Source: an uncultured virus (IMG/VR IMGVR_UViG_3300026522_000029) (lineage: Duplodnaviria > Heunggongvirae > Uroviricota > Caudoviricetes). From it: a DNA stretch of 64,000 nucleotides. The position numbers were made by a program, and so were the translations under genes. The notes under the pieces were generated by a model. That model had not been told where the DNA came from. It worked only from the letters and a program-made list of their open reading frames with translations, and ran no database searches. Positions 3,518-63,609 of this stretch are shown piece after piece; the stretch's first letter is position 1; each line of letters opens with the position of its first letter. The DNA lies in the IMG/VR virus record IMGVR_UViG_3300026522_000029; one strand, given 5' to 3'.

Positions 3518-4456
3518 ATGGCTTTTTGTTTGAATTATAATAGACATAATCCTTATATGAATTAGGTTGATGAAATTGTTATTAAATTTCATAAATCGAC
3601 AACTCTACTTGATTTCCTAAAAGAACATAAAGATCAAAGAATAATTATTTCAATAGAAGATGGTAAAGCCTTCATTGAAGAGGGCGGGATCAATTATTTT
3701 AAGTTAATAAAACAGATGTGCGACAACTGGGTATTACGATTCCCAAGTATGTTTGATGAAAAGACGATTACTCTAGATCAATGTCACGATGTAGCTGGCG
3801 CCGCCCTTCCTTTTTTCTTTAATGATTATATTGATAAATGGGATGTCATGTATGGTTATTTTGCTCTTGGCGTATCAGATATTTACATAACTAATGAATT
3901 GGGTTTTGAATTAGATAAGATTTCTAAAATAGCAAAAGGAAAGAATGTTAAAATTAGAGTCCTGCCAAATGTAGCACAGTCTTCTTGGTTTGATACAGAT
4001 GATCTAAGGAAGTTTTTTATTCGTCCAGAAGATATAGAAAATTATCTCCCGTATGTAGATGTATTTGAATTTTATGAAACTGATCCATCTAAGCCGCAAG
4101 TAGGTTCAATTCTCTATAAAGCTTATGCAAAAGATAAAAGATGGTATGGCAAATTAAATGAAATCATTGATAATTTTTCGGGCGAGCTTGATGGAAGATT
4201 CACACATCCGCATTGGGTTGATAGAAGAATCAGCTGCGCCAAGAGATGTTTGAAGGGTAGGCATTGCAGAGCTTGTCTTACTATTGGGAGCTTCGCAGAT
4301 ACGCTCGAAAAAGCTGGTATTACTATTGAAAAACCAGAAGAAAAAACAGAAGTATCAAAAAAAGAATTAGAAGAGAACATCAGAAAATATTACGGCGCGG
4401 ATGTAGAAAATCATATTAATCTTGATGATATTCTTACCTCTATTGAAAAACAATAA
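3518..4456 (+). CDS. hypothetical protein with C-terminal Cys cluster (one in-frame TAG)
   Basis: AGAGG RBS and ATG 3518; TAG 3563 in frame with track ORF 3716..4456. Confidence 0.75.
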
Positions 4457-4498
4457 AAAATAAGTTATAATATTATTAGAAAGTGAGGAAACAATATT

Positions 4499-4735
4499 AT
4501 GATTTATATTGAATATTGTCTTTCTGATGGAATTGATAAGAATACAGAGATTTATTATGCAGAATATCCAGATAATACACACAGTAATAAATTTAAATCT
4601 GCATTAGACTGGATGACGAATCATTTTTATGCTAAGCATTGTATTAACACAGATAAAGATGATGATTACTTTTGGAAATGTAAAAATAACTCTTACTATT
4701 GCAGAGTAACAAAAGAAATGGCGGAGGCAAACTAA
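4499..4735 (+). CDS. hypothetical protein
   Basis: ORF with GAGG RBS. Confidence 0.65.
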   Translation: MIYIEYCLSDGIDKNTEIYYAEYPDNTHSNKFKSALDWMTNHFYAKHCINTDKDDDYFWKCKNNSYYCRVTKEMAEAN

Positions 4736-5046
4736 TGGCGGCAAAAGGCACAGAAGAAAAGAAGAAGATTTTTGAGAAGATTATGGAAGTATTTCCAGGA
4801 TCATTTTATGAAGAGCAGGATAAGAAGCTCAGAATTCCAATGAAGACAGCGGACAATGAAGAAATTCAGATTCGTTTGCAGCTTACAACTTGTAAGGATC
4901 TATTGAGTGCGAACCCGGCGCCATCCAATGATGCTTCGACTTCAATGGAAGAATACATGAATCCGCCAGAGGATAGTAGTGAATGGGAAATGACTCCCAC
5001 AGAAAGAAAGCAAGTAGCTAATGTTCTTAGTAAACTGGGGATCTAA
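4735..5046 (+). CDS. hypothetical protein
   Basis: TAATG coupling, GGAGG RBS before ATG 4735. Confidence 0.7.
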   Translation: MAAKGTEEKKKIFEKIMEVFPGSFYEEQDKKLRIPMKTADNEEIQIRLQLTTCKDLLSANPAPSNDASTSMEEYMNPPEDSSEWEMTPTERKQVANVLSKLGI

Positions 5047-5049
5047 TTA

Positions 5050-5355
5050 ATGGCGAAATTGTATAAACTTAGCGATTTTCAAACAGATAGCGGTAGTTGG
5101 TATGCTATCTGTGCAGATCAGATTGGTAAAATAGGGAATGCTTGGTACTTTCCAGCAAGAGTATTAGGTATATCAATTTCTGATTTCATTCTTCTATTAA
5201 AAGAAAAATATAATGCAAATTTAATAGAGTGGACAGAATATGATAATTCCTCTAAGCCTCCCTTTTTATATTATAACTGGACATCATATAAAGATGTTCA
5301 TAAATTCGTCCTTGACGTAAATAGAGAGGCAAGAATGAAAAATTTTCTCATCTAA
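5050..5355 (+). CDS. hypothetical protein
   Basis: 101-aa ORF contiguous in operon. Confidence 0.7.
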   Translation: MAKLYKLSDFQTDSGSWYAICADQIGKIGNAWYFPARVLGISISDFILLLKEKYNANLIEWTEYDNSSKPPFLYYNWTSYKDVHKFVLDVNREARMKNFLI

Positions 5356-6980: not shown

Positions 6981-7042
6981 CTCTCAACATCATAAGAATC
7001 TTTTCTTTCGTATCTAGTTCGCCAATTGGCGAACTAGTATCT

Positions 7043-7116
7043 GGCTCCTTCTTCTAACTGGTCTAGGAAGCTGGATTTTCAATCCAGCAATGCGGTTTCG
7101 AGCACCGCAGGAGCTA
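7043..7116 (+). tRNA. tRNA-Glu(TTC)
   Basis: Cloverleaf; anticodon arm CTGGA-TT TTC AA-TCCAG. Confidence 0.9.
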
Positions 7117-7464
7117 TTTATCAACAAAGCAATTACCTATCATGCAACGAAACCGTCCAGACGTTGCGCACGTGATATGCTAGCATCAGGTGGACCCAGG
7201 AGTAGAAGATGGGCGTCCTACATAGGAAAATATTTGTTGATATAATTATTGTGGGAGCGATAGCCACATTAAAAAGAGTCGCCTAATATCTCTCTGCGGG
7301 AGCGATGCGCGCCTGTCTTCCGCTTAATAAATATATTTAAGAGATAAAAGGAGATGTGGATTTAGACTAATATCTAGATCCACTAGTGGGGAGAATAGAG
7401 TTTCATGCGGGGGCAGTACCTGCACTCTCCGTTCTATTTATTAATTTAAATGAGGTATAAAACT

Positions 7465-8384: not shown

Positions 8385-9290
8385 ATGAAAATTGATGGAT
8401 TAAAAGGTTATATTTATAAAATTTAGAATATTAAAACTGGTGAATGTTATATAGGAAAAACGACATATTTGCATCCAGAAGTACGGTGGCATCAACATAT
8501 TGCTAATGCTAAAAAAGGTATGTGTAAAAAGGGGTTATATCCAGCTGTACGAAAATATGGAGTAGATATTTTTAAATTTACTGTGCTAGTACCAGTATAT
8601 GGACCTAACTCTTTAGAGTTAACTGAAAAAGAATATATCAAAAAATATGATAGTTATTATCATGGATATAATCAAAGTAAAGGTGGAGAAGGATGTCACT
8701 ATTCTAAGATAGATGATTCTAATTTAATATTCTTATGTTCTTTATATAATTCTGGCAAAACTATTGCTGAAATAGCTAAAGAAACAGGTTTTGACAAAAA
8801 ATTTATTTCTACTTTTTTAAAAAAGCAAGGTATCACTATTAAAACTCCAAAAGAAATTGCCATTCATAGAACTGGTAAGAAAGTTGCTATTTATAATGAA
8901 AAACATGAGTTGTTAGCTATTTACCCATCTTTAGGTGAAGCGGCAAGGCATTTTGAATATAAAAAAGCAACTGCCTCTCATATATCAGAAGCTTGCTATG
9001 GAGAAAGAAGAAAATCTATTAATGGATATTTTTGTAAATTCACCGACAGGGATTGTTATAATGAAGATTTTATAATTCCAGAAAATCCATATCATACTAC
9101 AGACGTAACAAAGAAAGCAGTTATTATGTGTGATAAAAATGGAATAGAAATAATGCGTTTTCCAAGTGGGTGCGCAGCAGGAAGATATTTTAAAATGGAT
9201 AAACCAAGTCAAGCTACAACGTGCATTAAACGAGCATGGGAAAGAAATGGCACTTGGCGTGGTTATAAATGGAAATATGTAGAAAATTAA
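8385..9290 (+). CDS. GIY-YIG homing endonuclease with NUMOD-like repeats (one in-frame TAG)
   Basis: GYIYKI*NIKTGECYIGKT: the GIY-YIG motif spans TAG 8424; GYNQSKGG; repeated xxYPSLGEAA motif. Confidence 0.88.
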
Positions 9291-9696: not shown

Positions 9697-9700
9697 TTTT

Positions 9701-10806: not shown

Positions 10807-10882
10807 CGGCCTGTCCTCTAGTGACCAAGGAGATATAACTCTAAATTATAAAACGTGGGTTTGAATCCCACCAGGCCGTCCA
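10807..10882 (+). tRNA. amber suppressor tRNA(CTA) with tRNA-Glu-like body
   Basis: CGGCCTG/CAGGCCG acceptor, TATAA-CT CTA AA-TTATA (anticodon 10841-10843), GTGGG/CCCAC T-stem, encoded CCA. Confidence 0.92.
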
Positions 10883-10932
10883 CCTCCTTTCTTACTAGTG
10901 TTCTAGGAGGTTAAATTAGAAACGCTAGACTT

Positions 10933-12811: not shown

Positions 12812-12926
12812 TGGGCGGGCGCCGCTCGACCGTCACGGTTTAACGGGCGCCGCCGCACAGGTTTCGCTTAACCTTTAATAAGTACGTATAAGCATCTGGG
12901 GCACTACTAAATGCTCCAGATTATCT

Positions 12927-12999
12927 AGGGGCGTAACATAACTGGTTAGTGTACTAGACTTTGACTCTAGGTATCCCCGTTCGATCCGGGGCGTCCTTG
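12927..12999 (+). tRNA. tRNA-Gln(TTG)
   Basis: CTAGA-CT TTG AC-TCTAG; CCCCG/CGGGG T-stem. Confidence 0.9.
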
Positions 13000-13102
13000 T
13001 TTTCCATATATAAATGATGATAGGATGTTTCAATAAGTTGATTTTTTGAAAATTTTTTGATATAATATATACATAAGATAAAGAAAGAGGAGAAAAAGAA
13101 AA

Positions 13103-18805: not shown

Positions 18806-18808
18806 ATT

Positions 18809-22564: not shown

Positions 22565-22832
22565 TTTTACAAATCTCCTTTATTAATTGATCTGCATTAA
22601 TGCCACGCTGACTTAGCATTTGTCTCGCTAATTTCTAAGGGTCGCCGCCATTTTGGTTGACCATCTTCATAATCTGAGTGATTTTAGGATCATTATTTGC
22701 TATCATCTGTTGTAGCATTGCTTGCGGATTTTTGATAGAATTAAACATACTCAAAAAAGAGTTAATATTACTTGCTAGGCTTTGTGATTGTGTATTTCCC
22801 AGCATTTGAAGAATTGGATTGCTGTTTGTCAT
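22548..22832 (-). CDS. hypothetical protein (reads through TAG 22635)
   Basis: NPQAML...GGDP*KLARQML; TAA at 22548. Confidence 0.7.
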
Positions 22833-23115
22833 GATATTCTTTTATTTCCTCCTAAATTTTAGCAATTCTCGTTTCAAGAGAAGTAAGAGTAGATGTTTCA
22901 GTTTTATATGGGGCAATAGTATAAGGTGAAATAGTTTTATAGCCAGCCCCATCTGTTTGAATCAACCACACTAATGGCGCAGTTGTATCCAACAATAAAG
23001 CTGAACTATCTGGTGCCATCTGATAGGCTTCCGCACCATTTCTACCATTTACTCTTGTCACTTGTTGTTTTAGGGGCGGTGCCCCAAAATATGGATTAAA
23101 ATTAGGATATTGCAT
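22768..23115 (-). CDS. hypothetical protein (reads through TAG 22852)
   Basis: RVNG..GAEAY.MAPDS..LLLD...TDGAG; RIAKI*EEIK. Confidence 0.75.
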
Positions 23116-31697: not shown

Positions 31698-31868
31698 AAT
31701 ACACATCAGAAGCAGCCGAACGGAGCAAGACCACGAGCAACGTTGGCGTCGTTGTAGTAGGCAATCCCGATGTCGTCGACCAAGCAGAAGGCATCGCTGT
31801 GGCCACTGCGAGGAGAACGCTCCCACCAGGAACCACTAGAGACGTTGGAACTCCACCTCGGAAGCTTG
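31698..31868 (-). repeat. variable region VR2
   Basis: Identical 3' end CTCGTGGTCTTGCTCCGTTCGGCTGCTTCTGATGTGTATTA shared with VR1. Confidence 0.85.
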
Positions 31869-32539
31869 TTCCTGTTAGCCGCTGTCTTATAATAGGTATA
31901 CTGACTTCCCTATCCAGCGACAGAATATGTAGCAGAACCGAAAATCTCTATTTCTGAGCCAAGGAAGATTGAATCTGAAGTTGTTTCAGTTCCACTTGAA
32001 GAACCGCCACCTGTACCAGATTTTTTATTTACTGGCTTAATAAGTGCTTGTAAATTAGCAGGTAAAGCTTTTAAATAAACATTGTTACACCAAGTTCGTC
32101 TAGTACAACCTCGCCATCCATTGGTATTAGTATTGCTACTATTCATATATCCACGTTCACTATCACTCGAACCACCTGTATCAGATACATTTGCAGCTCT
32201 TAAGCAATCTTTTTGTGTCCAAGTAATAAGAGCCTTTGTTTTATCTCCAATAGCAGTAGTTAAATCATCATGATTAAAATCAGCAATAGCAAGTTGTACA
32301 GTTTGCGCTCGATGTGATTCTCCAACACCCGTCGCCGCCATTGCGCTTAGAGAAACATTTCTTACATCTCCAACTTTCCACACACTCTAAATTTGATCAA
32401 GAGTAACATCTCCATCATAATACCCTTGCACCATAGCCGCAATCTGTTTATCAGTTCCACTTGACCATGCTACAAGTTCAATATTTTTTCCTCTTGTTAA
32501 ATTAATCTTTTTTCTTAAAATTGCTAAAGTTTCTGCCAT
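31706..32539 (-). CDS. DGR target protein 2, paralog of target 1 (two in-frame TAG)
   Basis: MAETLA start; TAG 32387 and 31910; collinear with target 1 through to GLAPFGCF. Confidence 0.85.
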
Positions 32540-42728: not shown

Positions 42729-43307
42729 TTAAGGGCGCTTCTCATCTGTGTCCGCCTGCATAATCCTTATAAATTCCTCTTCAGAAACTACCTACCAAGT
42801 TAAAATAGCAGGTTTAATATTTGTATGGACGAACGAATTCCCACCCGCAGCTTCGTATGATTCAATAAGTCCTTCGAAGCTTTCTAACTCATTCTATGTT
42901 AAAAAAGCTTTTCCGTTGTTTATCTCTGCCCTCTTTTGATAAGCTCTGAAGCTCTTCTCTATTCTATCTTTTAAATCATGAATATCTTTTTTCTTTTGAT
43001 AATCATGTGTTTTTACCATAAAATCAGATATTTCATCTAATTTTCCAAGAATTTCTACATCTTGATTATGAAGTTTTTCAAATTTTTCATCTGACTCTTG
43101 TTTCATAATAGTCATATCATTACGAATATTTTTAATTTCATGTTCATTGTTTTCTGACTGCTCTTGAGTAGCATCATATTTGTTTCTAGCTTTACGGTAG
43201 GCTTCTATACACTTATAGATAGCAATAGCTGCTAGAATAATAGCTACAACCCAACCGAGTACAGCTCCAGCAGACAAGGAGCCTAAATATTCTATAAGCA
43301 TCTACAT
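42729..43307 (-). CDS. membrane-anchored holin-like/lysis protein (three in-frame TAG)
   Basis: N-terminal TM helix, coiled coil, YEAAGGNSFVH; TAG 43302, 42894, 42792. Confidence 0.7.
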
Positions 43308-43409
43308 TGAACGATACCTCACTTTTCATTATATAGACAATGAAAAGTGCAGAAAAAGAATATAACATTTTAGACCAACAAAAAAGAGGGCGATGATTTA
43401 ATCCTCGCC

Positions 43410-44126: not shown

Positions 44127-47100
44127 TTAATTAATATAATTGCCATTATGATCTTTTCCGCCAGTAAGAACTCCATTAATGAATTCGAGCCAAGTATTGT
44201 CAGAAAAAACAACTCTCACAGTTTTTCCCTTCTGACCTCCAACTACTAAATCTCCAGTAATGGAAACTTTTTTACCAAAAGCTGCGTCAGCAAACACAGC
44301 AAAATCCTCATAAAAATATCCACCACCTTTGAAAGCCCATTTTCCTTCTACAGTTAGACTTTTTCGGGCAACAAGATTATCAACAACTAGATTTGGAATA
44401 TATTCTGCTAAAGTAGTATGACCATCATCTGCAAGTACAGTCCCGCACATTAATTGCCCTGCTGCATATTTAAGTCCATTAGCAGCACTTACTATATTAC
44501 CAGTCTTACCTAACATTCCATTCACCAAATTCATAGCCCCACCATAAGCGCCACCAGTCCATGAATTAGCACCATCACCAATAGTAAAATTACTCTTAGC
44601 GGTAATATCGTTGAAATTTGCTTTTCCTGCATTACTGATACTCCAATTGCTTCCACAGCTAATTCCATTTGAAGCGTCAATAGAAATACTGTTGTTGCTT
44701 AAACTATTAGGCCTAATTGCCCAACCACCAATCTTACCAGTCGTTACTGCAATTAGCTCTCGACAAGTAATTGTACCATTTGAATTAAGAGTTGTACTAC
44801 CTCCAGATAATTCATTTGTACCAATATTCCAACCGCCAATAGTACCAGAAGTAGAAGTAATTTTACCATTGCTATTTACTTTAAAATTATTATTAGCAGC
44901 CTCAAAAGAACCATTATTATGCACAATAAAAGCATTATTAACATTAATTTCTCCACTAGACTTTAATGTTACATTTCCACCTTTTAACTCGGTCTTACTA
45001 ATATTCCAACCGCCAATAGTACCAGAAGTAGAAGTAATTTTACCTGTTTTGTCTACCTTAAAATCATTATTGGCCGCCTTAAAAGAACCATCTGCATAAA
45101 TTACGAATTTTTGCTTGCCAACGGCGATTCTCTCTACATTTTCTCCAGTTCCTTTAGAATATAATGTAGTATTTTTATCTTGAGAACTTAAACTGTCATC
45201 ACTGATTTTCCAACCTGCAATAGTTCCTCCACCTTTTGCTGTGAGATGACCTTTTGCATCTACTTCAAAATCTCCAGAACCAAATCTAATACTTGGTGTT
45301 TCTAGATCAATTAATAAACCGGATTCAGCTTCAGATACAGGTCTTCCTGTAGTATCATGATTATAAAAACCCCAAGAGAAAATAGAACCGGCGGGGGCCG
45401 CTCCGTAGTGGTATGGAGCTAGAGTAATTTGTCCGTGTCCTGGCAAACCAAATTGCGCTTTTCCTGTTTCTGCATCTAGGAAAATACTTCTTTGACCACT
45501 AGCAAATCCCATTAAACCAATTTCTCTTTGTCCGTTACCATTGGCATTAAAAGACTTGCCCATAGTAATACCAGTAAATCTATTTGAGCTATCTTTTTGA
45601 CCTGCGCCGATTTGAGGAGCAAGAATATACTGGTCGCCCTCTTCATTAATCTTGATTGATGTTCCATCCCAATCATTCATTGCTGCAAGACCATATCTAT
45701 TCAAATACAAATAAATTGATAATATAATAGTATAATTCCCATCATTATCGCTATAAGTAGCAACAATATAATTATTAGTAGTTTCACTATCGTATACTGA
45801 AGGTGGATTAATTTCTACTCCATTTTGCCCTTGTAACTGAGTATTTTTCCTATTTGTATACCAACTAGTATACCATGAAATTCTTGAATTGTCAACTATC
45901 TGTTCTACGCCATCTTTAAAAATCCTTAATTCAAAAGGCTTAGAGCTGAAAGAACTTCGGGTACCATCATTATTATACATACACTCTCTGAACCCACCAG
46001 TAACAATTGCATGAATGTTTGAATTAGGGGTTCGTGCAATATCAAGTGGATAGGTAGCATAATAATTTTTAGCTTGTTGACTTAATTCATTGGTTTCTAT
46101 TGTTGTTTTTATAACAGTAGAGACATTATTATATGATCTAGGGGTGAGTATACCATTTGAAGAAATTTCTGCATTATGAGTAGTATCTCTTCCTATATCT
46201 ACCATTTCCCAAGTTAATCCAGGAGCTAATGTAATATTAGTTCTAGAGTCATACAGCGGCGTTGCGTTTCCATCCCACAATTGTGCTTTTAATGGCTGGT
46301 TAGTTGAGATTCTTGTAAAGTTATATTTCTCTGTAATCTTTTCTTCACCTGTTTCAGCGTTATATACTTTATCTATATCTCTATACCAGCCATAAATATT
46401 ATTATTCTCTAAATAAATTTTCTAATACTTGTCGTTGAAAGGAACTATTTTACTGATATACTTAGTGCCGTTTGTTCCACTCTCGCCTTCCTTAACAAAA
46501 GTAAAGTTAGTAGAAGCTACGAGATTATGACCTTGAAAACTTACTTCAAGTCTAATTGTATTATCAGTGGCATCTGCATCATATCTATTTTTAATTTCAA
46601 AAGTAAGATTAGCTGCATTTTTTAATACATGACGGAGTAAATTACCATTATTAGTTGGATTAATGACTAAATCATCTACTAGATCAAAAGTCTTGTGTTG
46701 AAGCATAGTATAATCTTCATCGGGCCAAACCCATTTAATATCGCACATCTTGATTTTTTCTGTATCAGATCTAGGTGTAACAATTTGTCCCTGGTCATTA
46801 TAAATATCAAAAGAGAGAGATGGAACAGTAATAGGCTCGTCAGAAGCTTTGTTAGTAGGGCTTACTCCATATTCATTATATTTAAATACTTGTGTACCAT
46901 TATTAATGATAAGAGTATACTCTTTCTCTGACATGCCATTGGTAAGAGTGATGGCGGCCGCGCCTATGTACGTCCCAACACTAGTTACTGTACATTCATA
47001 TGTCACAAGATTAGTTGCTTCACTAATTTTTACTCCTATTGATTTACTTTGATCTCCAACTGTAACTAAAGTTTCATCTGCACTTCTGTACCCCCAATGA

Positions 47101-48428
47101 TAAACCAATGGCGTTGTAACATCTGTTATTACATTGCATGTTAATGTAGTAACGCCAGTATCAAAATAAAACTTTGTACCTGCACTAGATACAATTTCAA
47201 TAGAATTCGTAGCAGCTTTATTCTCAATATCAATAGTCCCAGAGAATGTAGTATTATTTGTCACAGCCACACACTTAAAAGTATTGACCTCATTTGGCGC
47301 CATTGTAGGTCGTAGATCTTTTCTATATCCCTCTGGTGTAAATTTAGTCACTCCATTATAAGTTGTATGTTGGTTAAGACATCTCCAGCCTGCGCCCGCA
47401 TAACTTGAAAAATTCTCATTATCTGCACTTGTTACTGTTGTATCTTTAATAAACCAATAAAAATCAACATTTTGTGAATTAAAATTAACCTTTTTACCTT
47501 TTATCTTTAATTCTGCTTCAAGATAAATAGTGTCATCATTACTTGATTTAAAATAAGCTCCATTTGGAGTTAAAATTTTTAACGAGCCGCCCTCTAATTC
47601 AGTTTCAGTAAGAGGCTCCATGAATTCTAATTCAAAATCTGATAAGAAAATATCATTAGGTTGATTTTCTTTTGTTACAGGGAATCCATTACAAAAGGCC
47701 TCAATGCTCTGAATTGATTTAAGATTGTTTCCATCAATAGCAAAAATAGTATATTGACGATTTTTTACTATGTATTTGTATGGTTGTCCTTGCATATTAT
47801 TTACATCAAGAACATAAGTTCTAGTTACTAAATCATCATCTGATTGAACTTCTTGATTTTTGTAGGCAGCGTTGTAATATTGCGCCTGAACGATAATGCC
47901 ATAATTTCCTCCGGCGACCTGTTGTTCGGCAGGAAGAGACGTTTTTACAGACATTCCAAGAAGAATATATTTTTTCTATTTTTTGTAAGTAGACAGAGCT
48001 ACAGGATCTACAGTAATAATATTTTCTGAAAGAAGATTCTTTTTTTGTTCGCCGTTATATGAACAAAATTGCACAGTATCAGAACTGGCAAGTAGATTAT
48101 TACCAACAACAGTCATTCTACCTTCTGCTGTAACTGCACCGATGTATTTTGTGCCTAGCTCTTTAACTGAACCAACGATTAGCTTTGTTTTTTCATAGTC
48201 ACTAGAAGGTATTTCAACATATACTTGGTCATCTACATCATATGACTGATCTGGATTTGCATATGCGTAGAATTTTGAATTCTGATATCTCACCAAATAC
48301 TTACCTATGCTGGAATCTTCAATAGAAACAATAGTAGCTCTAACCGTATGGTCAAAATTCAATTGACTAACTCTTTTATTCAATAAAATCTATATTGAAT
48401 CAAGAATATTCTGTTCAATGTTAGACAT
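44127..48428 (-). CDS. large tail protein/central fibre, 1433 aa (three in-frame TAG)
   Basis: Track ORFs 47976, 46422 and 44127 joined via TAG 48390, 47976 and 46422; GTIGGWNI repeats. Confidence 0.8.
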
Positions 48429-48593: not shown

Positions 48594-51500
48594 TTAATAA
48601 GCTCTCCTGTTCTTTTGCGCTCTTTGTGTTGCTGCATTAACAAGATTATTAAATGCTTTTTCAATTTCTTGACTAGATTGTACATCTGGAAAGGTAGCAT
48701 TAATAGTAATATCTTGATTTGTGCTAGAATTACTATTTGTAGCAAAATTTCTGAATGTATTACCAGAAGCTAACTTATCAAGTAAATTGCCACCGACACT
48801 AGACAGGCTGCTGATTAGATCTCTTGCAATCTTTACTGCACTTAAAGTATTCTTGGTGTCATCTTTATTAAGAACGAGTTCCTTTTGATGCAAGAAAGCA
48901 AGTTTGCCTTCTTTATTACCATTTACCCATTCACCAGTATATCCACCAGTTGCAAAATATTTCCATTTTCCACTTTTATTTGTTCCTCTTAGTCTTCCGC
49001 TACTATCATAAGCATTCTGATATCCCTCAAATTGAGTAACAACTTTATAGCTATTTTTAGCATTAGATGCAGGGGCCCCGGTAGAAGTATTTGCTGCGCC
49101 AGCGCTTCCTCCACTAGCGCCGCCGCCACCTCCAGAACTAGAACCGCCGCCACCTCCAGAACTAGAACCAGAACCAGAACTATTATTAATTCCAGTTGGA
49201 ACTTGACTAGCAGTTCCACTTGGAAGACTTGAATTGGGAGGACTGCTTACAACGTTCGCGCCTGTTGCAGCCATCCAAAAATCATTTGCTGCTTGTGCAG
49301 CTTGAATAGCTGCTGCTTCAGCCTCTTGGTAAGCATCTACCAGAGATTGGATTTCACTATAGACGGATGCCGCCGCATTGCCTTCATCTTCCATTGTCTG
49401 AATCAATGCTTCCTTAGTCTGAATTAATGCTTCATTGGTCTGAATTAATCCTTGAGTCTGTCCGATATCATAGTCTACACCATTAGCAATATCAGTGAAA
49501 ACTACCCCAGCAACAGATTGAAGATTAAGCAGGTCTTGCTGATAAACTTGATTTGCTTGAACGATGCTATTCATTGCAGGAATGATTACATTGTTTGTCA
49601 AATCCATATAGCTCTCACCAACTTGACCGAGAGCAGTATTCCAACTAGGACTTAATCCAGTATCAGAACCAAATAAGAAGTCTTGATTGAGCTGCCCCAT
49701 ATTGTCAAAATTCTTTTGATAAACTTCATTAACAAAAGCATCGAACAATGTAGAAATGGCGCCGTCTTCGCCCATTAGAGTTTGGATGCTTGCCCAAACA
49801 GAATCATCACTAGCTTCATCGCCATTAAGGCCAAGAAAAGCTTTTAGATTATCACCCATCTCAGTTAAAAGATTACCAAACTCTGCGCCCGTTAATTCAA
49901 TCAGCTGGCTTTGCATTGTATTGTAATCAACACCAAGTTTAGTGATATAACCATCTTCACCAAAATATTCTTCCTGTAATTCAAGTAATTTTTCTTGCAA
50001 AACTTCTTGGTCATCATAATAAGTCTGACTTAGCTCAGCCGCCTTATCAAAGAAATCTTGTAATTTATCTTGCACTTCATCAATAGTATCAGATACATCT
50101 TCTTTTGCAAGTTTTCTTAATTCTTCAAGAGAATCTCTTAAATCCTTCTGTGCTGATTGTACTTGATCCTCATCTGCTACATACTGATAAGTATAGTTGC
50201 CTTGACTATCTCGGCGCAACCGCATATTTGTTTTTGCATTTTGGATATCTTCAAGTGCAATTTGTTTCTGAAGAACTTCAAGTTTTTTGTTAGCAATATC
50301 AAGATCAATTTGTCTCAAATTAGCAATATTATTAAGATCATCAACCTCTTTGTCCATGAATTCGGATAATTGCTTCTGAACTCTAGGAGATTGCTTATTC
50401 ATTGCACTATTAACATTATCAACAAAATCTAATACACCAGTTGCTCTTGATGCGACATCTAAATATCTGTTGTCATCCCATTTAGCACGGTCCCACTGAT
50501 CTAGAGCTTTATTCCAATCTCCGCCGAGCATCTGATCTTTAGTATTTTTAATAATCTTATTAATAGTATTATTATATTTATCAAGAAGATTTTGTACTGC
50601 GTTTTCAACAGCAGAGTTGAGGTCAGTAATAGAACTCATCCAGTTATCTCTGAATTTCTTCCACTCATCTGTTCCTTTTTTGGCGTTGTCCATCTGCTGC
50701 TTCCACCTATCTGCCTGTTTACGGTAGAAGTCAATCTCTTGATTATAATTTTGCGCTCGCTGATCGTACCAATTACCAAGGTCTTCATAATCTTCATCAC
50801 CATGAAGTAATGTGATAAGATTCATATCATGTTCAATGAGCTTATCTACCTGGTTATACGCAGAAACTTGATCATCGAACATTTCTTTTACTTTATCAAT
50901 AGCATCAAGATAATTTTTATGAGTATCTTCAACATTTTTATGAGTATCTTCAACATTTTTATGAATATCTTCAACAATTTCTTGAGCATCCTCAAGATTG
51001 TTCATTAATTCATCATTATATTTTTTAAGATCATTTAGAGCACTCTTTTCATTTTTACCGTAGATTGAACTCGTTCCACCATTCTCAATGATTTGAGCTT
51101 CTTGTCTAATCTTATTAACTTTATCTGTTAGTATTTGAATTTCTCCAGTTCCAGTTTCATCATAGTAGCTGAAGAAATCTTGCATCCGCGCCTTAGCTTG
51201 ACCGACATAATCATCATCCTTGATCTTATCGATAACCTTTTTGCGGAATTTGTTAAAGTTTCTTTTTGCTTCAGATACTTCAATTTGAAGATCGATCTCA
51301 ATCTTAAATTGCTGAATTCTTAATTCTGTTTCTTTATCTACAATATCTTGGACTTTATCTTCCGTATCTTGGAGAGTATTTTGAAGGTCTTCATAACCGT
51401 CCATTGCCTTCTTGAGATTATCCCAACGGCTTTTTTCTATTGCGGCTTCATTTAGTATTACTTCCTGCGCTGTAGCATCTGTAGTCTTGGCGGCCTCCGC

Positions 51501-54500
51501 CAAAAGGCTATTATACTTCTGTTGATGTTTAATTTCCAGTTGGGTATAATTAATAATATTATTCTGGCTATCAAATTGTACACCCATTTGCTCTACAGTA
51601 GCTTTGGCATTTGCCATATCTTGACGAAGCAATTTCTCTTTTTCTTGATAAAGACCATTTTCTTTCTCTAAAGCTGCAATTTCACGATCAAGATTAGCAG
51701 ATAGTCCTTGACGAGTTGATTTATCAGCATCTTTTTCGATATGATTGATATTGTCATCAAGATCTTCTAATTCTCTATTGAGCTTATGGTATTTATCAAT
51801 ATCAGAATCTTTGATCCAATCTTTTAATATATCAGCAGAACTTTTAGCTTGCTTCTAGCTACCCTTATTACCGCCATTGCCAGAACCAGATTTGCCACTA
51901 TTACCAGATTTACCACTTTTAGAAGAAGGGGCGTAAGCATTGCCATTACCAATATTAGTAAGTCCTTTTGCTATTCCATTTGCAGAAGCACCTAACATGG
52001 TCAAGCTATCTCTTTGCTTTGCTATGTTCTTTGCAATAGCATCTGCTGCTGCATTGGCGGCATTGGCAAGATTTTGATATCCTTCTGAAGTATTACCAAA
52101 CTTACTTAAATAACTATCAATAGCAGAGGAGGAAGTTAAATCTCCAATATCATTAGAGGCTGTTTGCTTTTGAGTTGTTGTCCCCTTGTAGGTATTAGAA
52201 GCATTGATTCCTGATGCACTCGCATTTGTTTCAATATACTTCCCAGTTGTCATTGCTTTGGCTGCGTTTGCCATTGCTTGACCAACTTGATTAGCAGAAC
52301 GAATTGATGAATTTGCCCAGTCAGCTACAGATTGAGAGGCAGAACTTGCGGCTCTTGCATAGTTTGCGGCTATTGCAGCTCCTTTTGTATCAGAATCATT
52401 TGCTACAACCTGTTGATCTGACATTTGAGCATTAGAAGCAATTTGTGAATCATCAACTCGAATCTTCTTTACAGCATTAGAAATTTGTGCTTTTGCTTTG
52501 GCTGCATCTGAATCAGAAGTTACTTCATTGGTTGCCATTGCTTGTGCGGCTGCTGCAATTGCTCTATACTGAGCTTCTTTGTCTTCCATTAGGGCGATGT
52601 TATTTTCAATCTGCGCTGCTACACTCTCTGCATTAGCAGTAGTTTCTGCGGTGGCTGCCCCAACTGCGTTATTTACAATATCTTCATTTAATTGGTAACT
52701 ACCATCAGATAGCTCTTGCATTCCTTGGAGGATTCCAGGGAAAGCTTCGCTCAAAGCATCGAGATCACTCGCCGCAACAACGAAGTTATCTCCAATTTTA
52801 TTAGCGGCGCCCGCAATAGAATCAAATTGCCCCTGGATTTGTTCAACAGCTTCATCAAGTTTTGTATTAACAGTCACATCAATGACATGTTCTGCATTAA
52901 TATAATTATCTAATTCATCTTCAAAATATTTAAGTGCTTCATCATTAATTTCAATGGTTACTCCATCATCAGATGTCATTGCATCTAAAATACTTTGAAG
53001 TTGTTGAGCTGATTCTTCTGCGTCTTCTCTTGTCTGGTCTAATTTCGCTACGTCTATTGCATTTTCGATATTTCCCATCGCATCTGCATAATTGTAAACG
53101 GAATCAACACCATCGTTCATTGCTTCACGAACGGTCTTAACATCTTGAGCTAATTGAGGATATTTTTCAAGTAAAGCATCTAATTCAGTATTTAATGCTG
53201 TTTGATCATCTTCTCCAAGGACATTTCCTTTAGAAATAGACTCAAGAGCATCTTTCGCATCTTTCGCTCCTGCAACAATAGTAGAAAGAGCGTCCGCTTG
53301 ATTTTGCATCTTATCAGTAGTTTCGTCAGTATCTTCACCAACTTTAACTAAAGATAAATCTAGATCTCCTAATCCAGATGTCAGAGTTTCTATTGAAATC
53401 CCCGTGCTGTCAGAAATAGCTTTTAAATTATTGAAGGCGTCAGCCCCAATTTTATCTTTCAAACTGTTTTCATCTAGTTCTTTTCCATCTTCAGAAAGTT
53501 CTTTAACAGCCTTTTGGATTTCTTTAATTTTATCAATATCTATTCCTGTACCTGACCAAGCATTAGCAATTTGATCTTCTAACTGTCCAGAATTTTTATA
53601 ATACTGAGTAATTACATCTTTTAACTGTTTTATTAATTCTTTATCTTGCGTCGCTAAAGCAGAAGGGAGGGCCTCTTGAGCTTGAGACATTTTATCAGAT
53701 TCATCTTTTAATATCTCTTCATAGTTCTTTTCCCACTCATCTATATTAGCTTGAATTTCTTTTAGAACCTCTCCATTGTTCGCAGCTTTTACTGCTTGCA
53801 CAAAGGCTTCTTCGGCTTTTTTATCAAATTGTCCAATTCCAATTAAATAATCAGCACCCGATTTGCTAATATCTTGGCCATTTGCCTGAGCACTCTTCTT
53901 AGCTAAATCAACATCTGTCCCATAGAAATTCTGATCATTAGAAGCCATATCAAAGGTGCCACTCTTAAAAGCCTGTCTAGTAGCCTTGTTTGTTGCTTCT
54001 GCATTTATTTTGTTTAGAGTCTCTTGGTTTTTAATCTCAGCTTCTAATTCAGCATTTTGAGCTTTTAGATTTACCAAATCTTGAGCATCTGTAATAGAAA
54101 TTGTTCCTTTACTTTGGATTTCATTAATTTTATTTGTTGTTTCATCTAACTGTGTATTTAATGAATCCAAATTATCTAGTCCAGAAGAGTATTCGTCCGT
54201 ACTTTCTTTTAAAGCCTCTCCCGCTTCTTTTGCAGATGTATGTAAACTATCAATTCCTTTTACAACAAAAGGAATGGCTGCACTTATCGCCCCTAAAACA
54301 AGTCCAATGGGTCCCATCGCAGCTTGCAAAGACACAAAACCGCTAATCAAAGTAGGAATCATCGCTGCAAGACCAGAAATTGCTCCAGTAGCATCAACTG
54401 TCCCATCACTTAATCCAGAGAAAATGTTCATCAATCCGGCTCCGCTAGAAGACAACTGTCCAATAGCTGCTGTTGCCTGAACAATATTTTGAATTAAAGA

Positions 54501-56789
54501 TTGTTGCTCCGCTTCTTTCTGGATTCCTTCTTGAGCAGCATTTACTTTTCCAAGTGCCGTATCTTGCTCATCGAGTTTCTTGTTGATATTATCAATATCA
54601 ATATCTAATGCGGCGCCAGCTTGGTTTGCATATTTATAAGTAATGATAAGAGCATTTTGGATGTCTTGTAAATGGCTTTTAGTCACAGGTATCTGATTCC
54701 TATTAACATCATCCAAAGTTTGAACAGCTTGTTGAACTTCTGGCGGAAGAGAAGTATTTCCCTGAAGAGAAGATAAATCAATTCCCTGGATTGTTTCTTT
54801 AATAGCTTTCTTACTATCTCTTGATATTCCTCCAGATTTGAAAATCACAGAATTAGCAGCATCTTTGGCTTTTTCTATTTCTTTCGTAATATCTTTTATT
54901 TGAATTTGGAGATCAACAAGTTCTTCTGAGTTTCCTCTTATATTACTGCCTGCGCCATTTAGCTATTTTGCATATTTTTCTGCTTTAGCAATAATATTTT
55001 CATAATCTTGTTGCTGCTGAACTAACAATCCTTCTTGTTTAAGAAGTTCATTATATTGATTTCGTTGCTCGTTCGTCAAAGCAGAAGCGTATTTTGCAAT
55101 ACCTTTATAAGATGCTTGCATTGCAGAAACAGCTGGATTACTTGAAATTCCGTTCAAGCCAGCTATCTGATTTATCATTTGCTCACTCTGCTGAAGAATA
55201 GCTTTATTATTGAAAGCATTTTGAATATTAGTAACAATACTATTAATCTATCCTGCAATTGTCTTATTAAAAACTAGACTAAGTGTTGAAGCAAAATTCG
55301 CTAATACAACGCCGCCACCACCAATAGCATCTGATAACTTGGTGAAAATATTTAATAAACTTGTTCCAAAATCAATTACATTTTTAAAACTGTCTGTATC
55401 TGCTAAAGACTGAATTAAACCTTCTTGTGCGGTCTTTAATTGATTTGTATGAGCCGCTAATGATTCCATATAAATATCATTTTTCTCATTCAACTCATTA
55501 TTCGCATCAAGAGAAGTATTTAGTTCCTTAGTATATGTATCCCAGTTATCATACAACGCAATTAAGTTGTTCATTTGGCGCTGGCCCGCCATAGTCTGAG
55601 CAAGATAGACCTGCTGCTCTCTGCTCATGCTAGACCATTTCTGACCAATTTCGGTCATTACATCACCAGTATCACGAAGCTTATTATTTTGATCAAGAAC
55701 ATTGATACCGACTTCTGCCATTTTCTTAGTATAATTACCAAGTGAAATTTCGGCATCATCAGTTCCAGCTTTTATATCATTAATTCTTGAATAAATTGTT
55801 TTGAGAGCGTTACCAGTTGTTTCTGGGGCCTGTCGTGTTACCTGTGTTATCGTAGCTATCTGTGCTGCCAACTGATCAATTGTAACACCCATATTATTAG
55901 CAATAGAAGCAGATTTAGACATTGCTGTTGCTAATTCTGACATGTCAGAAGCAGAAGAATCTGCTACTGCTGCCAATTTAGATACTGCTTTTTCAGCATT
56001 TTCTGATGAAATTTGATAACCATTCCAAACGGCTGTTAAATTATCTGCCATTTCAGAAGGATCTTGTCCAGTGATATTAGATGCCTTTAATGTTGCTTCT
56101 GTTCTAGCTGCACTATCTTGTGCTCTCATACCTTGCTGTACAAAAGTTAAATACGCATTGGTATAATCCTTTGTTTGTCTACCTAGCGACGCTGCTGCTT
56201 CATTCGCAGATTGAGCAAAAGCATCCATTTTCTCTTGAGAATCACCAGTGACAATTCTGATATCATTTAATGAACCATTTAACGCTTTTACGTAATTAAA
56301 AGCATTCTGGACCGCCCCAGAAAACTGATTAATAATACTAGATGAAATATTCCATTTAATAGTATTTGATAAGGTCTCGCCCATCTTATCCAAAATATTT
56401 TGGGCACTTTTTAAATTTAAATTTGCTCCATAGACCTGAGCGGCAACACTGGCAAAAGCCCTTTGTCCAACCGCACCAACTTGTGAAAAATCACTATAAA
56501 TTTTTTCAATAGTCAGATCAGAATTGGACAATTCTTGATTAAATTTTGTAACATTTATTGAATCTAATTTTGGGTTAAAAGCCTTCATCAAGGCTCTTTC
56601 AACCTTATCAGCAGTTTCTTCTACTGCTGTTAACTTATCTCTTGCCTAATCAGCGGATTTTGCGTTGATAATACTTTTTGTACCAGCAGTATAAATAGCA
56701 TTAAGAGCCTATTTAACTTGCTTTAAACCAGAAGTATCAACATTAAAGCCCACTCCAAAGGTTATTTTTCCACCATTATTGTTAGCCAT
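48594..56789 (-). CDS. tail tape measure protein, 2731 aa (five in-frame TAG)
   Basis: One frame across four track ORFs (TAG 56709, 56646, 55248, 54963, 51855); TP901-like core GNALKTIYSR; FATGGYTG. Confidence 0.9.
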
Positions 56790-57488: not shown

Positions 57489-57550
57489 TTTATTTTTCTC
57501 CTTTTATCTCCATTTTTCTATTTTTATTTTAACAAAAATTTTCAATTATG

Positions 57551-58711
57551 TCAAATCTTCACGCCTATTGTTTGTTTTATCTATTTGGGAACTTCATTAG
57601 TAGCAACTACTTCTACTTTATTCCTTAATCCTTTTCGGATATTTTGCTTTATTGGGTCTTTATATTGTTTCTATAAAGAAATTTGTTTTAATTCAGAAAC
57701 AGTCTTTATTTTATTATTTAAAATTTGGTTTGCAAGAGTAACCATCTGGGTATATCCAGGAAGAGAAGCATTTAATGATTTTACCGCATAATCGTATTCA
57801 TTTGTAGTTATATCTGAAGCATATAGTCCAGATACATTATCAACATTGACAACACCTTCTCGAATAAAATAGTCCATATTTCTATTATATACTCGCCCTA
57901 AAAAAAGAGTGTTTGGATTACTTCCTTCGCCACCAGTGTAGAAAAAATATGCATAGGCCTCTGCAATATCTCCGGCGGCGCCGCCAATAGTCAACTTATA
58001 CCAAATATTTTCCGTATCTATTTTCCAAAAAACATGGGGCTTCCATTTTTTATAATCTGCATCTGTCTCTTTATATGCTTCATTAAGTCCTTTTAAAGAT
58101 TGTGCCCCTATAATAGAGTCTTTCCTAATAGCTTCTGCTAAATCCGTTTTAACTTTATCAATACTAATTTTTAAACGCCCAACTAATCGTGGAATTTTAG
58201 CAGAACTCATATCTGTTGTTATTGAAATTCCTTTATCTCCTTGCAAAATTTTTTCCATTGGAATATTAAGTATTATTGGATTTCCATCTGCATCTAGGAA
58301 AACAATAGATATCTATGCTTTATGCCCTGTTATAATTTCAAGAATTCTCGCATTAAAAATCATTGAAGCTGCATAAAAATTATCTAATGTTTTATTAGCT
58401 AATCTCTATTGTTTGAATTTTTCTCTAGCTTCAATATATTGCTGCACTTCTACAGGATTTTCCACAGTACCTGGAGCAACCTTTAAACTATGTCGTTTGT
58501 TCCTTAGAGATAAAGCGGTTTGCTCTAATTGCATAATCTCTTCTCGGCTAGCTTTAATAACTTCTATAAAATCTAAAGCATATTTTTTCATTAAAAGAGA
58601 ACCGTCATCACCAAGTTTTTTTAATTCCTCCGCGCTTTTATCTCCAATAAGATTGGCTATTTGCTATATTGCCCCATCAGATACTTTTATATCCGGGCCA
58701 AAAGTTGCCAT
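57551..58711 (-). CDS. hypothetical protein, 386 aa (five in-frame TAG)
   Basis: GGAGG RBS; joins track ORFs 58406 and 57671 in one frame. Confidence 0.7.
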
Positions 58712-58827
58712 AATCTTCCTCCCTATACTTTTTTGAAAAAATATTATATAATATAAATATAGAAAAAGTTCAAAGATATTCCTGTTGAGGAATTAAATCT
58801 TTACCTTAACAGAGAAAGCGTAATATT

Positions 58828-59166
58828 ATGACTAATCTGTTAAAGAACTTTTTCGAAACTAATGATATATGTGAAGCTGATGATATTATGTATTTAATTA
58901 AAATTAAAAATACTAGTATCACAGAATTTCATCTGAAAGACGGACGTATTCTTACAAAATACATCTCACTAGGAGCATGTAATAAATAGCTACCGTCAGA
59001 AATTTTTATACCTATTAACAGAGGTATTATAATTAACAAGCATTATATTAAATGTATTAATAGATATATTTATCATATGCAAGATGGGACTATTTTTGAA
59101 GGTAAATTAAAAGCCACTAAATTACACAAAAAATTAAAAGATGAATGCACTCATCATATATCATAA
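58828..59166 (+). CDS. stand-alone LytTR-like DNA-binding protein (one in-frame TAG)
   Basis: K*LPSEIFIPINRGIIINKHYIKCI resembles LytTR; own TATAAT upstream and hairpin at 59175-59206. Confidence 0.65.
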
Positions 59167-59222
59167 TAACAAAAAATAGGGGAAGTTTATTAGACTTCCC
59201 CTATTTTTATTTTAAATTACTA

Positions 59223-61397: not shown

Positions 61398-61401
61398 AAA
61401 T

Positions 61402-62217
61402 TTATTCCTCCGATAAAAATCTATCAAATTTTTCTTTTTTCCTTAAAAGAAAAAACTAAGGATCATTTTTATACATATATTGTGCAAGCTTTAAAGAGTC
61501 TTTTTTACCAAAAGTCAAATGATAGCAAGTCTTTGCTTTATTACAAAAACTGATAGAACCGCCTTCTATATCGGATTTCTCTCTTAAAACTCTCAAAAGC
61601 TCTTCAAGAAAAATGCGACTACCACTTGAAAAATTAGAATTTATTCTATTATCTTTCACAAACCAGACGCTGCCGTCCCCATCAAAGTATCCTCTAACAA
61701 AATCAGCAATAAATTCATCTGGAATCTCTTTAGGAAAAACAGCCGTTAAACTTTTACGTTCGGCGCCGCCCAGTTTTCTTATATCATTATAAATAGTAAC
61801 GCAACTAAAATTGATTCTTGAAGATTGAGTATCCACCGCGTCTTGCAGATTTCCCTCATACTCCATGTCTTTTGCAATTTGTTTTAAAATGTACTTATCT
61901 TTTCTATGCTGAGTTATATCAAACATTTGTCCTCGATAAATACAACCATCTGCCCACCATAGACCTAATGTATAAGCCATATTATGTGACCAGTGTTTAA
62001 AATAATCTTCATTTATATGATATTTTCTCGCATTTTTCGATTGAATTTTTGACTTCTCTTCTTTTGAAAGATGTGCTATTCGACAATCATTGTGATAACA
62101 AAAATCATATATCATCTTTCTTGGATATTGAAAACCAAAAAATTCTTCCCATTCTGGCAAGGTTTTACTATCGCTCTGGGCGAGTAGAATCTCCTTATGC
62201 TCCTTTAATATTGGCAT
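61402..62217 (-). CDS. free-standing LAGLIDADG endonuclease (reads through TAG 61456)
   Basis: YTLGLWWADG and FVRGYFDGDG; DP*FFLLRKKEKF. Confidence 0.88.
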
Positions 62218-62237
62218 ATTAAATTCCTTTCAATTTC

Positions 62238-62999
62238 TTAATGATTGAGAGAATTCAAATCTCCCATCCAATTGTCTACTTCATCTAAATCCTTAGCCCC
62301 CGCCAATTTTTCCTGAACATAAATATCAAAATTTTGTTTCATAATAAATCGACGAAACTAATTCATTATCTGATAAACGCTATAATCTAAAAGTGTATTT
62401 ATATCCTTTTTCTATCCTACTGCTAAAATTGAAATGTAACGAGAAAAAATTGAAGACGTTTGTCCATCTTCTCTATTTTTCATCTTTGCTAATTTTTCAT
62501 GATATTTCCGAAACTTCTCTGCTAATTTTCCTTCCACTTCTGTAGCAGGATTATATCCAGTTTGTTCATTAAAGATATCTTTTAAACAAAACATCTCTTT
62601 TACAATTTCTCTGAACTTATCAAAATTAGCTGCATTAATTTGTAATACCCTTGGTTTATCCCCACTAGTATCTATAAAACCAATACTTCCAGGCAAAAAA
62701 TTGACCTTATAATTTGGAAACATCAGAAGCAATAGCATCTATGCACAAGCTCTACTTCTTTGAGAAGCAGGATTTTTATCTTGTACGATTGACATAAATA
62801 CATCAAAATTTGTTATTTTAGATAAATCAATATCGTCCTCAATCTTATCTTTAGATACAGTTAAAGTTTGACAACCTAAGAAAAAATTTTCCTAGCCAAT
62901 CAAACCAATTTGTTTTAACGTTGGTTGATGAATATTTAATTGAGCTTCTGGAAAAGGAATATCATTTTTAGAAAAGATAGAAAACTCATCACTGCCCAT
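62238..62999 (-). CDS. structural-module hypothetical protein (three in-frame TAG)
   Basis: DIPFPEAQLNIHQPTLKQIGLIG*ENFF; single frame of 254 codons. Confidence 0.75.
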
Positions 63000-63609
63000 C
63001 TGTTAAATCTTCAGTAAAATGAAGCCCTCTATAAGATATAGTATACATAGAAATATCTTCATTTAAAACACTTAAATTACATCCTAAAAAAATATATTTC
63101 CCAAAACCAGATAGCTTTATATTATTCCCTATTGAATAACCTATATTTTTATTTTTATCAGAAAGAGAATTTAAAATTCCATCAATATAACCGCAAATTT
63201 CCAGAGGACGAGTTTTATAATCATCAAGACACCAAGCATCCATATAGCAAATTACATCAAAATTAATTGTACAGTTTCTAAACTCTGGATTTTTACTTGG
63301 TTCAAAATTATCAAAAGAAACTAGGATATAAGATTTAATTTCTTCATGTTCTCCCCTTGGAATTTTTGGATTAAGCCTTATATATCCCTAGTTAATTAAT
63401 CTGCCAACAGAGTAACTATCTATTTCATCTTGGTACTCTTGATTGCTCATATCTAAACAATCTGACTTATTAATTATTAATAGTCTTTTTAAAACATCGC
63501 TATAAGGATGAGAAGTTACAAAAAGAGTCTCAAGAATTTTTTGAATATCAAGACTACAAGATAAAAAAGATGAACGGAGAGGCTGCGTTTTGACTAAATC
63601 TTTTCTCAT
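62989..63609 (-). CDS. structural-module hypothetical protein (TAG 63388)
   Basis: Two track ORFs in one frame; SSFLSC, RPLEICGYIDGILN. Confidence 0.75.

Follow-up and report, generated by a model that had tools for sequence, protein, structure and literature searches.

In-frame TAG codons in a clade of ruminant-gut phages are likely read as glutamate

The 64,000-nucleotide stretch of DNA analysed here (hereafter the window) is from the uncultured virus IMGVR_UViG_3300026522_000029 (IMG/VR; Caudoviricetes), and covers part of the genome of a large tailed phage of bacteria in the ruminant gut. It raises the question of what the codon TAG means in this phage. An earlier note on this DNA had reported that about 40 in-frame TAG codons split otherwise continuous genes, and had favoured glutamate (Glu) over glutamine (Gln) as the residue inserted. 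From the sequence comparisons described below, we conclude that the phage very probably reads TAG as a sense codon for Glu, beside GAA and GAG.

In-frame TAG codons in the window and its relatives

We observed 39 in-frame TAG codons across 19 long open reading frames (ORFs), in agreement with the number given in the earlier note. The count rose to 47 when the set was widened to 72 non-overlapping ORFs (at least 50 amino acids long, and clear of RNA genes), and 23 of the 72 ORFs carried at least one. Translation with genetic code table 11 broke the large genes into pieces, while reading TAG as sense gave single frames. The pieces of the tape-measure gene (1012, 997 and 447 amino acids) became one gene of 2731 amino acids, and those of a tail gene (717, 510 and 135 amino acids) became one of 1433 amino acids. 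No in-frame TAA or TGA was present in the 72 ORFs, as against 34-43 per 1000 among off-frame triplets. The gene ends had been described as TAA or TGA, and we indeed counted 47 TAA and 25 TGA ends, a result that follows from the construction of the ORF call.

A first search found a single syntenic IMG/VR contig, G001 (99,929 bp), with 55-79% protein identity along the whole window. The more distant contigs G003 (133,086 bp, 93% complete), G002 and G004 were found by profile search, and a metagenome scan yielded seven further loci (L025-L031). Similarity to G001 continued across the TAG codons, with the flanks conserved on both sides. In-frame TAG was also present in the aligned genes of 9 of the 11 relatives; L026 and L029 had none in 766 and 512 aligned columns, respectively. 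These observations confirmed that the in-frame recoding of TAG is real and far beyond chance.

The TAG codons were unevenly distributed. Their density was 1.23 per 1000 codons in the early genes and 3.04 in the late genes (2.5-fold). The polymerase, primase-like and ligase genes of G003 had no TAG, and its structural genes had 13-21.

Could these codons be leaky stops, or the decay of a dead phage, or do they stand for some other residue (Lys, Asp or a non-standard amino acid)? Taken together, we consider these possibilities very improbable. Two of the codons do adjoin ORF ends: TAG 17196 lies 8 codons before a TAA, and TAG 30367 lies 1 codon before a TGA. Neither has an aligned column in any relative, and both could be true stops or lie within spurious ORFs. 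Against leaky stops and decay stand the 47 TAG codons in conserved frames, the longest of 2731 codons, which contain no in-frame TAA or TGA, and the same usage of TAG in at least nine related contigs. Decay is also opposed by the occurrence of near-identical phage DNA in 20 public runs from 12 studies, mostly labelled as bovine or sheep gut metagenome (each run having at least half of the sampled words from window positions 54001-64000). The phage is common in ruminants.

The residue at the TAG positions

ORFs were translated with TAG as X and compared by pairwise blastp, the best non-overlapping matches were kept, and the codon opposite each TAG was read. A column was retained if at least 40% of its 12 neighbouring columns were identical. 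For each candidate amino acid we then computed the likelihood of the partner residues, using substitution frequencies from the same alignments. As a control, each sense codon was left out in turn and treated as unknown by the same procedure. The whole syntenic contigs (G001-G004; 10 genome pairs) were compared with the window at the DNA level.

In 9 of the 10 genome pairs, the likelihood for TAG was highest with Glu. In three of the pairs the control recovered 59, 61 and 59 of the 61 sense codons, with CAG and CAA called as Gln, and GAG and GAA called as Glu. Only ATG and TGG failed, since Met and Trp have no second codon for training. TAG was called as Glu in all three, by 74.0 log units over Gln (n=108), 203.1 over Gln (n=163) and 233.8 over Asp (n=238), Gln falling below Asp in the third. 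The commonest codon opposite TAG was GAA (34, 77 and 102 occurrences), and in G002-G004 TAG was more frequent than GAG. Asp, which is two base changes away from TAG, was mostly rarer opposite TAG than opposite GAA. Residues that are one change away (Gln, Lys, Ser and Tyr) did occur opposite TAG, and Tyr was almost never found opposite the Glu codons. Judged from these alignments, such a partner pattern (rarer Asp, with Gln, Lys, Ser and Tyr from single changes) is that expected of a Glu codon spelled TAG.

When we examined the window alone, 27 of its TAG codons had a sense partner in G001. The partner was Glu at 11, Lys at 4, and Asp, Ala and Thr at 2 each, with Ser, Gln, Val, Arg, Ile and Cys at one each. 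The log-likelihoods were -60.4 for Glu, -78.7 for Lys and -81.5 for Gln. Glu was ahead of Gln by 21 log units, of Lys by 18 and of Asp by 26, and the last two values, together with far larger ones in the larger pairs, oppose Lys or Asp as the residue. In the reverse direction, 232 distinct sense codons of the window were aligned with a TAG from one or more of the 11 relatives (Glu 89, Gln 26, Asp 25, Lys 22). Opposite the TAGs of the relatives, Glu was enriched 6.7-fold and Gln 2.9-fold over a background of 5.7% Glu and 3.9% Gln. The seven metagenome loci agreed with Glu; the TAGs of L027, for example, lay opposite Glu 20, Lys 5 and Asp 5 times in the window. The preference for Glu over Gln expressed in the earlier note was thus borne out across the genome pairs and in the window (11 Glu and 1 Gln among the 27 partners).

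All nine of the sequence contexts that had been read there as Glu were found in place (TAG 62892, 63388, 61456, 48390, 42792, 34055, 22852, 8424 and 17196). Five of them (62892, 63388, 48390, 42792 and 22852) had Glu in the nearest relative. Of the remainder, 8424 had Thr and 34055 a gap, and there was no nearest-relative column at 61456 (Tyr and Thr in further relatives) or at 17196. The internal comparison of two paralogs also held, with TAG 31910 aligned with Glu and TAG 32387 with Lys. The caution that had been attached to this Lys was well placed, as four more TAGs of the window lie in Lys/Arg columns.

We also evaluated protein families. The 253-amino-acid protein of the window (Table 1) belongs to a family of 628 database clusters, and the best 120 of these were aligned. 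The columns at TAG 62892, 62739, 62412 and 62358 contained E102/Q16, L36/E35/Q15, E77/Q23 and E98/Q13, respectively, so that Glu was the commonest residue in three of the four. This tabulation of homologue residues at TAG columns had been proposed in the earlier note as a check, and its outcome was Glu.

A guanylate-kinase-like gene of G003 has 11 TAGs. The best 149 of 3701 homologues from a full HMMER search were aligned (one 634-amino-acid match was dropped); residues of the distant homologues, here and for NrdD below, were taken as given, whichever genetic code applies to their source. The commonest residue was Glu in 7 of the TAG columns, Asp in 2, Gln in 1 and Pro in 1. Pooled over the columns, the 1613 residues included 555 Glu, 261 Asp, 121 Asn, 118 Gln and 117 Lys. 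Two of the columns were near-invariant for Glu (137 of 149 with no Gln, and 116 of 149 with 5 Gln). The yeast guanylate kinase (1gky, 1ex6) has Asn, Asp, Glu, Glu and Glu at the five TAG columns that fall inside the aligned stretch. Variation between strains gave one more instance: of the 1176 strain differences, 40 were listed, and among those listed one falls in a TAG codon, TAG 46422, which is GAG in the contigs of four out of four public runs (+ strand 46424, A to C).

Several observations weigh against the assignment to Glu. In the small pair formed by the window and G002 (n=25), Asp, His and Glu were within 3 log units and Asp was the best. TAG 57671 and 56709 lie in columns with Lys in all four relatives, and the columns of TAG 58313 (Arg, Arg, Arg, Lys) and TAG 58406 (Lys, Ser, Lys, Lys) are similar. 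These four codons and the Asp call are also what would favour some other residue. The NrdD of T. maritima has Lys, Glu, Lys and Trp opposite four TAGs of G003. Gln was over-represented: in a two-component fit, the Gln-like share of TAG was 0.04-0.21, compared with 0-0.15 for true Glu codons and 0.88-1.0 for real Gln codons. Finally, database proteins that are 93-97% identical to genes of the window or G001 (P0001, P0177, P0003 and P0182, compared at the protein level only) had Gln at 26 of 27 TAG positions.

The sole exception among the 27 was Glu at TAG 58664, in a protein of 96% identity. The 26 Gln residues most likely represent TAG translated by table 15, since a Gln codon replacing every TAG at such high identity is implausible, and the Glu at 58664 most likely represents a real Glu codon. 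No exact match turned up between database proteins and the contig ORFs, with TAG taken as either Gln or Glu. As near-identical entries show Gln at 26 of 27 TAG sites, the Gln residues of database proteins were not used as evidence.

The database copies would also suit ordinary code 15, in which TAG is Gln through a tRNA(CUA) charged by glutaminyl-tRNA synthetase (GlnRS), or by glutamyl-tRNA synthetase (GluRS) together with GatCAB. For phages with a code unlike that of their host, the available text of the Borges preprint, Peters et al. and the phAss-1 paper reports no TAG reassignment other than code 15. The 2.9-fold enrichment of Gln at TAG columns, window TAG 42645 opposite CAG in G001, and the single kinase column of 11 in which Gln is commonest point the same way. 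However, the procedure that called the true CAG and CAA codons as Gln placed Gln 74 and 203 log units below Glu for TAG in two control pairs, and in the third placed it below Asp, itself 234 below Glu. The Gln-like share of TAG (0.04-0.21) is far from that of real Gln codons (0.88-1.0), and TAG is the spelling at two near-invariant Glu columns, where the 149 homologues have 0 and 5 Gln. We therefore give code 15 only a slight probability, and the sequence comparisons exclude a pure Gln reading of TAG.

A mixture of Glu and Gln is a different matter. It would arise, mostly at sites accepting either residue, if a Glu-charged suppressor were partly amidated to Gln or were charged by GlnRS as well. 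The Gln-like share was 0.21 for the window and G001 (support interval 0.10-0.34) and 0.16 for G003 and G002 (0.10-0.24), somewhat above the Glu-codon controls, which reach 0.15. In the three other pairs, however, it was 0.04-0.14, inside the range of true Glu codons. The change from TAG to CAG is a single transition, which alone would raise Gln at tolerant sites, and in the kinase family TAG stands at columns of near-invariant Glu. We regard such a mixture as unlikely, and Glu as the residue that most probably accounts for these data.

A suppressor tRNA with Glu-type features

The window encodes a tRNA with the anticodon CUA, and its tRNA-Glu(UUC) and tRNA-Gln(UUG) served as comparators (Table 1). 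The suppressor has the pairs C1-G72, G2-C71, G3-C70, C10-G25, U11-A24, C12-G23 and U13.G22, along with U8 C9, A37 and U73. Its D stem is CUCU/GGAG, and its 4-nt variable region (AAAC) has A46 and no residue 47. The anticodon loop (CU CUA AA) contains U35 and A37, with C at position 34 and A at position 36. The D stem of tRNA-Glu(UUC), UUCU/GGAA with U11-A24, C12-G23 and U13.G22, and with U8 C9, is of the same type. The tRNA-Gln(UUG), with A1-U72, G73 and the D stem ACAU/GUGU, is unlike the suppressor. The D arm of the suppressor also equals that of tRNA-Glu(CUC) genes at 9 of 11 positions.

Two relatives gave further suppressors. That of G003 equals tRNA-Glu(UUC) at 11-12 of 15 acceptor positions. 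In G001 (L003), the site syntenic to the window suppressor (12196-12333) holds a different tRNA gene with a 62-nt insert in its anticodon loop, and the spliced anticodon is CUA or UUA, by a 1-nt choice of boundary. Of 9 positions in its D arm, 8 are the same in the tRNA-Glu(UUC) of G001. The predicted fold of the insert has three hairpins closed by a stem (z -1.73, not significant), and Rfam gave no match on the split tRNA region. The first pair is C1-G72 in the window suppressor and in the split gene and G1.U72 in that of G003, and none of the three has G73. Among the phage tRNA genes, five for tRNA-Glu carry C-G or G.U at the first pair and three for tRNA-Gln carry A-U, A.C or U-A, all three of the latter with G73. 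The suppressors thus all lack the first pair of A/U type and the G73 that mark phage tRNA-Gln, which is a further point against code 15.

In E. coli, the major Glu determinants include U11-A24, U13-G22:A46 and the lack of a residue 47, according to the available text of PMC9976931, and the window suppressor has all of these GluRS identity features. Bacterial GatCAB needs U1-A72, and tells it from G1-C72, as described in the accessible part of PMC2811023. The U1-A72 pair is absent from all three suppressors.

The tRNA evidence also contributes to the opposite side. C34 and A36 of the window suppressor differ from the E. coli GluRS anticodon determinants, and G3-C70 matches the phage tRNA-Gln genes; as G2-C71 is also found in phage tRNA-Gln, these two pairs would suit a mixture of Glu and Gln. 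The suppressor is a mosaic, closest over 57 positions to a tRNA-Thr (34/57; the value for tRNA-Glu(CUC) was 31-32/57), and the overall identity of the suppressors to the phage tRNAs was 0.5-0.65 for many isotypes. No class Ic synthetase or GluRS gene was found in G003 and G001 (0 of 2), and the four relatives searched yielded no release-factor gene (0 of 4).

We propose that the decoder of TAG would be the phage's own tRNA(CUA), and that it may be charged by the host GluRS. Charging by a host enzyme is what we infer, since tRNA(CUA) is the only code-changing element found, and G003 and G001 yielded no class Ic synthetase gene. A suppressor with a Glu-type D arm, but without U1-A72 and without the weak first pair and G73 of tRNA-Gln, could keep its Glu and evade amidation. 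The denser TAG in late genes would fit the late-gene gating proposed for recoded phages, with a possible role in timing. Overall, the Glu reading is well supported by the sequence, and the charging mechanism is plausible.

Two other features were noted. An identical 13-base C/T-rich string follows directly after both suppressor genes (window 10880-10895; G001 (L003) 12331-12346), which may match the 3' end of 16S rRNA (anti-Shine-Dalgarno region). At 19822-19892 of G001 (L003), ARAGORN called a tRNA whose anticodon loop has 8 nt and whose anticodon, 'acca', has four bases.

Taking the relatives into account, it is likely that we are dealing with a widespread clade of 100-150 kb ruminant-gut phages in which TAG is Glu and TAA and TGA are stops, a code undescribed for a virus or prokaryote in searchable papers. 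Each lineage would have its own Glu-type tRNA(CUA), hijacking the host GluRS and evading amidation, and gene callers using table 15 would have entered Gln in place of Glu in public protein databases, hundreds of times per genome. Full-text literature searches, which covered the articles themselves, turned up no phage or prokaryote described as reading TAG as Glu. If TAG is Glu here, public databases that translate the TAG of this phage as Gln carry a wrong residue, and the translation of recoded phage genomes changes. The choice between the two translations affects about 50 positions within the window and several hundred in each full genome, among them some that would be conserved functional glutamates; the Glu reading would explain the Gln in database copies where the family has Glu. 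It would also mean that GluRS is a second synthetase of the host open to capture by a phage suppressor tRNA, and would provide a natural Glu-inserting amber suppressor for study.

Gene content of the window and comparison with known codes

The window has a G+C content of 36%. Early-type genes lie on the + strand (1 to about 20.3 kb), and tail and baseplate-type genes, including that for the 2731-amino-acid tape measure protein, on the - strand (20.8 to 64 kb). The early region encodes a SprT-like protein, a Thg1-like enzyme, an RNA ligase and a DUF2828/DUF7788 protein, and has an array of at least 13 tRNA genes (ARAGORN) plus a tmRNA-like gene (Rfam). The tmRNA-like gene (9361-9699, +) lies within the array and is a full-length match to the model RF00023 (87.5 bits), uncalled by ARAGORN. 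The tRNA at 11985-12098 (+) has an insert of 39-42 nt in its anticodon loop (Rfam, 56 bits; Lys-UUU by ARAGORN with introns), and beside it Rfam alone detected an additional tRNA at 11913-11981 (+; 34.3 bits). Adjoining the array is a set of RNA-repair type (13772-20307, +), comprising the DUF2828/DUF7788 protein (PHROG 'RNA-binding protein'), the Thg1-like guanylyltransferase and the RNA ligase.

Three genes are of the homing-endonuclease type, namely GIY-YIG, LAGLIDADG (both in Table 1) and HNH (59636-60136, -). Two of the three sit among the tail genes, and two have in-frame TAG. In the GIY-YIG gene the motif would be lost without read-through, as the TAG directly follows it. The labels GIY-YIG and tape measure given in the earlier note were confirmed by domain scan, and two others were not: no HPr-like gene was present among the 58 window proteins scanned, and a target of a diversity-generating retroelement found no support, with no reverse transcriptase in the Pfam scans of these 58 proteins. 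A repeat search limited to 26000-34500 gave only two paralog pairs and no template repeat. The DUF6273 paralogs (30467-31570 and 31706-32539, -) share 57% protein identity and 72-73% DNA identity.

The 386-amino-acid protein is probably the major tail protein, judging from gene order, its gene lying upstream of the tape-measure chaperones. The G001 copy of the 701-amino-acid structural protein has 8 TAGs. A search of GenBank phages with two structural proteins and the suppressor tRNA gave none or weak matches, and a viral-contig search with the 799- and 899-amino-acid proteins gave no match. Genome contigs searched with the major-tail alignment also gave no match, hence no host or prophage lead, and neither did a PDB sequence search with the AAA_24 protein and likely terminase of G003.

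Table 1. TAG-bearing genes and tRNA genes of the window, with the residue or codon aligned to each TAG in relatives
Feature	Position	Strand	In-frame TAG	Aligned residue or codon, or basis of call
Early-region gene	3518..4456	+	3563	G001: GAA
tRNA-Glu(UUC), comparator	7042..7117	+		ARAGORN
GIY-YIG homing endonuclease	8385..9290	+	8424 (right after GIY motif)	G001: ACT
Suppressor tRNA, anticodon CUA, encoded CCA end	10807..10882	+		ARAGORN; Rfam tRNA, 54.3 bits
tRNA-Gln(UUG), comparator	12926..13000	+		ARAGORN
Gene	22768..23115	-	22852	G001: GAG
DUF6273 paralog	31706..32539	-	32387, 31910	Paralog 30467-31570: K, E
701-aa structural protein	37872..39977	-	39258, 38748, 38274	G001: GTT, GAA, TAG
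899-aa structural protein	39999..42698	-	42645	G001: CAG (sole Q among the window's 27 columns)
197-aa protein	42729..43322	-	43302, 42894, 42792	G001: TAG, TAG, GAA
1433-aa tail protein	44127..48428	-	48390, 47976, 46422	G001: GAG, TAG, AAG
2731-aa tape measure protein (PF10145)	48594..56789	-	56709, 56646, 55248, 54963, 51855	G001: K, D, TAG, A, S
386-aa protein	57551..58711	-	58664, 58406, 58313, 57671, 57581	G001: TAG, K, R, K, E
LAGLIDADG endonuclease	61402..62217	-	61456	G003: Y; G004: T
253-aa protein (database label PF27211)	62238..62999	-	62892, 62739, 62412, 62358	G001: E at all four
206-aa protein	62989..63609	-	63388	G001: GAA; G003: AAA; G004: GAT

The phage resembles the recoded phages of table 15 (crAss-like, Lak, phAss-1 and the clades of Borges et al.) in its in-frame TAG in conserved genes, its TAA and TGA stops, its own tRNA(CUA), and TAG that is richer in late and structural genes. 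As in phAss-1, going by the available text on that phage, the relatives searched lack a synthetase or release-factor gene (0 of 2 and 0 of 4). Unlike in those phages, for which the accessible text of the papers gives Gln as inferred or measured, the TAG columns here are Glu, and Gln did not dominate them in the homologues. In the text available to searches, the phAss-1 paper assigns TAG to Gln, Cook et al. consider tables 15 and 4 only, and a 2026 survey of jumbo phages lists codes 15, 90 and 91. Within the same limits, the theta-ribozyme paper assigns 180 phage suppressor tRNAs to Gln, Trp, Ile or Tyr, with none to Glu, and a 2026 preprint on k-mer-based codes mentions TAA/TAG to glutamate only as contamination. 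Phage recoding in which the code differs from that of the host was confined to TAG as Gln and TGA as Trp in the searchable text of these papers.

Assignment of UAG to Glu is shared with nuclear codes of ciliates. The peritrich code is table 30, in which TAA is also reassigned. The available literature text gives UAG as Glu for peritrichs, and for an oligohymenophorean code in which UAA is Lys. The ciliate codes are eukaryotic, nuclear and used by the whole cell, whereas the code described here is viral and the host presumably reads TAG as a stop. TAA does not serve as a Glu codon here, as would be the case in table 30; it was never found in frame in the 72 ORFs, and it still ends 47 of them.

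The suppressor tRNA can likewise be set beside known tRNAs. The supE-type amber suppressor of E. coli is a tRNA-Gln with the anticodon CUA, which inserts Gln and retains the body of tRNA-Gln. The tRNA of the window has the same UAG-reading CUA anticodon, but it lacks the weak 1-72 pair and the G73 that are found in phage tRNA-Gln genes. It differs from E. coli tRNA-Glu, as far as the available description of the latter goes, in the anticodon CUA (without U34 and C36) and in having C1-G72 and G2-C71 instead of G1-C72 and U2-A71. With that tRNA it shares U11-A24, U13.G22 with A46, the absence of residue 47, U35 and A37.

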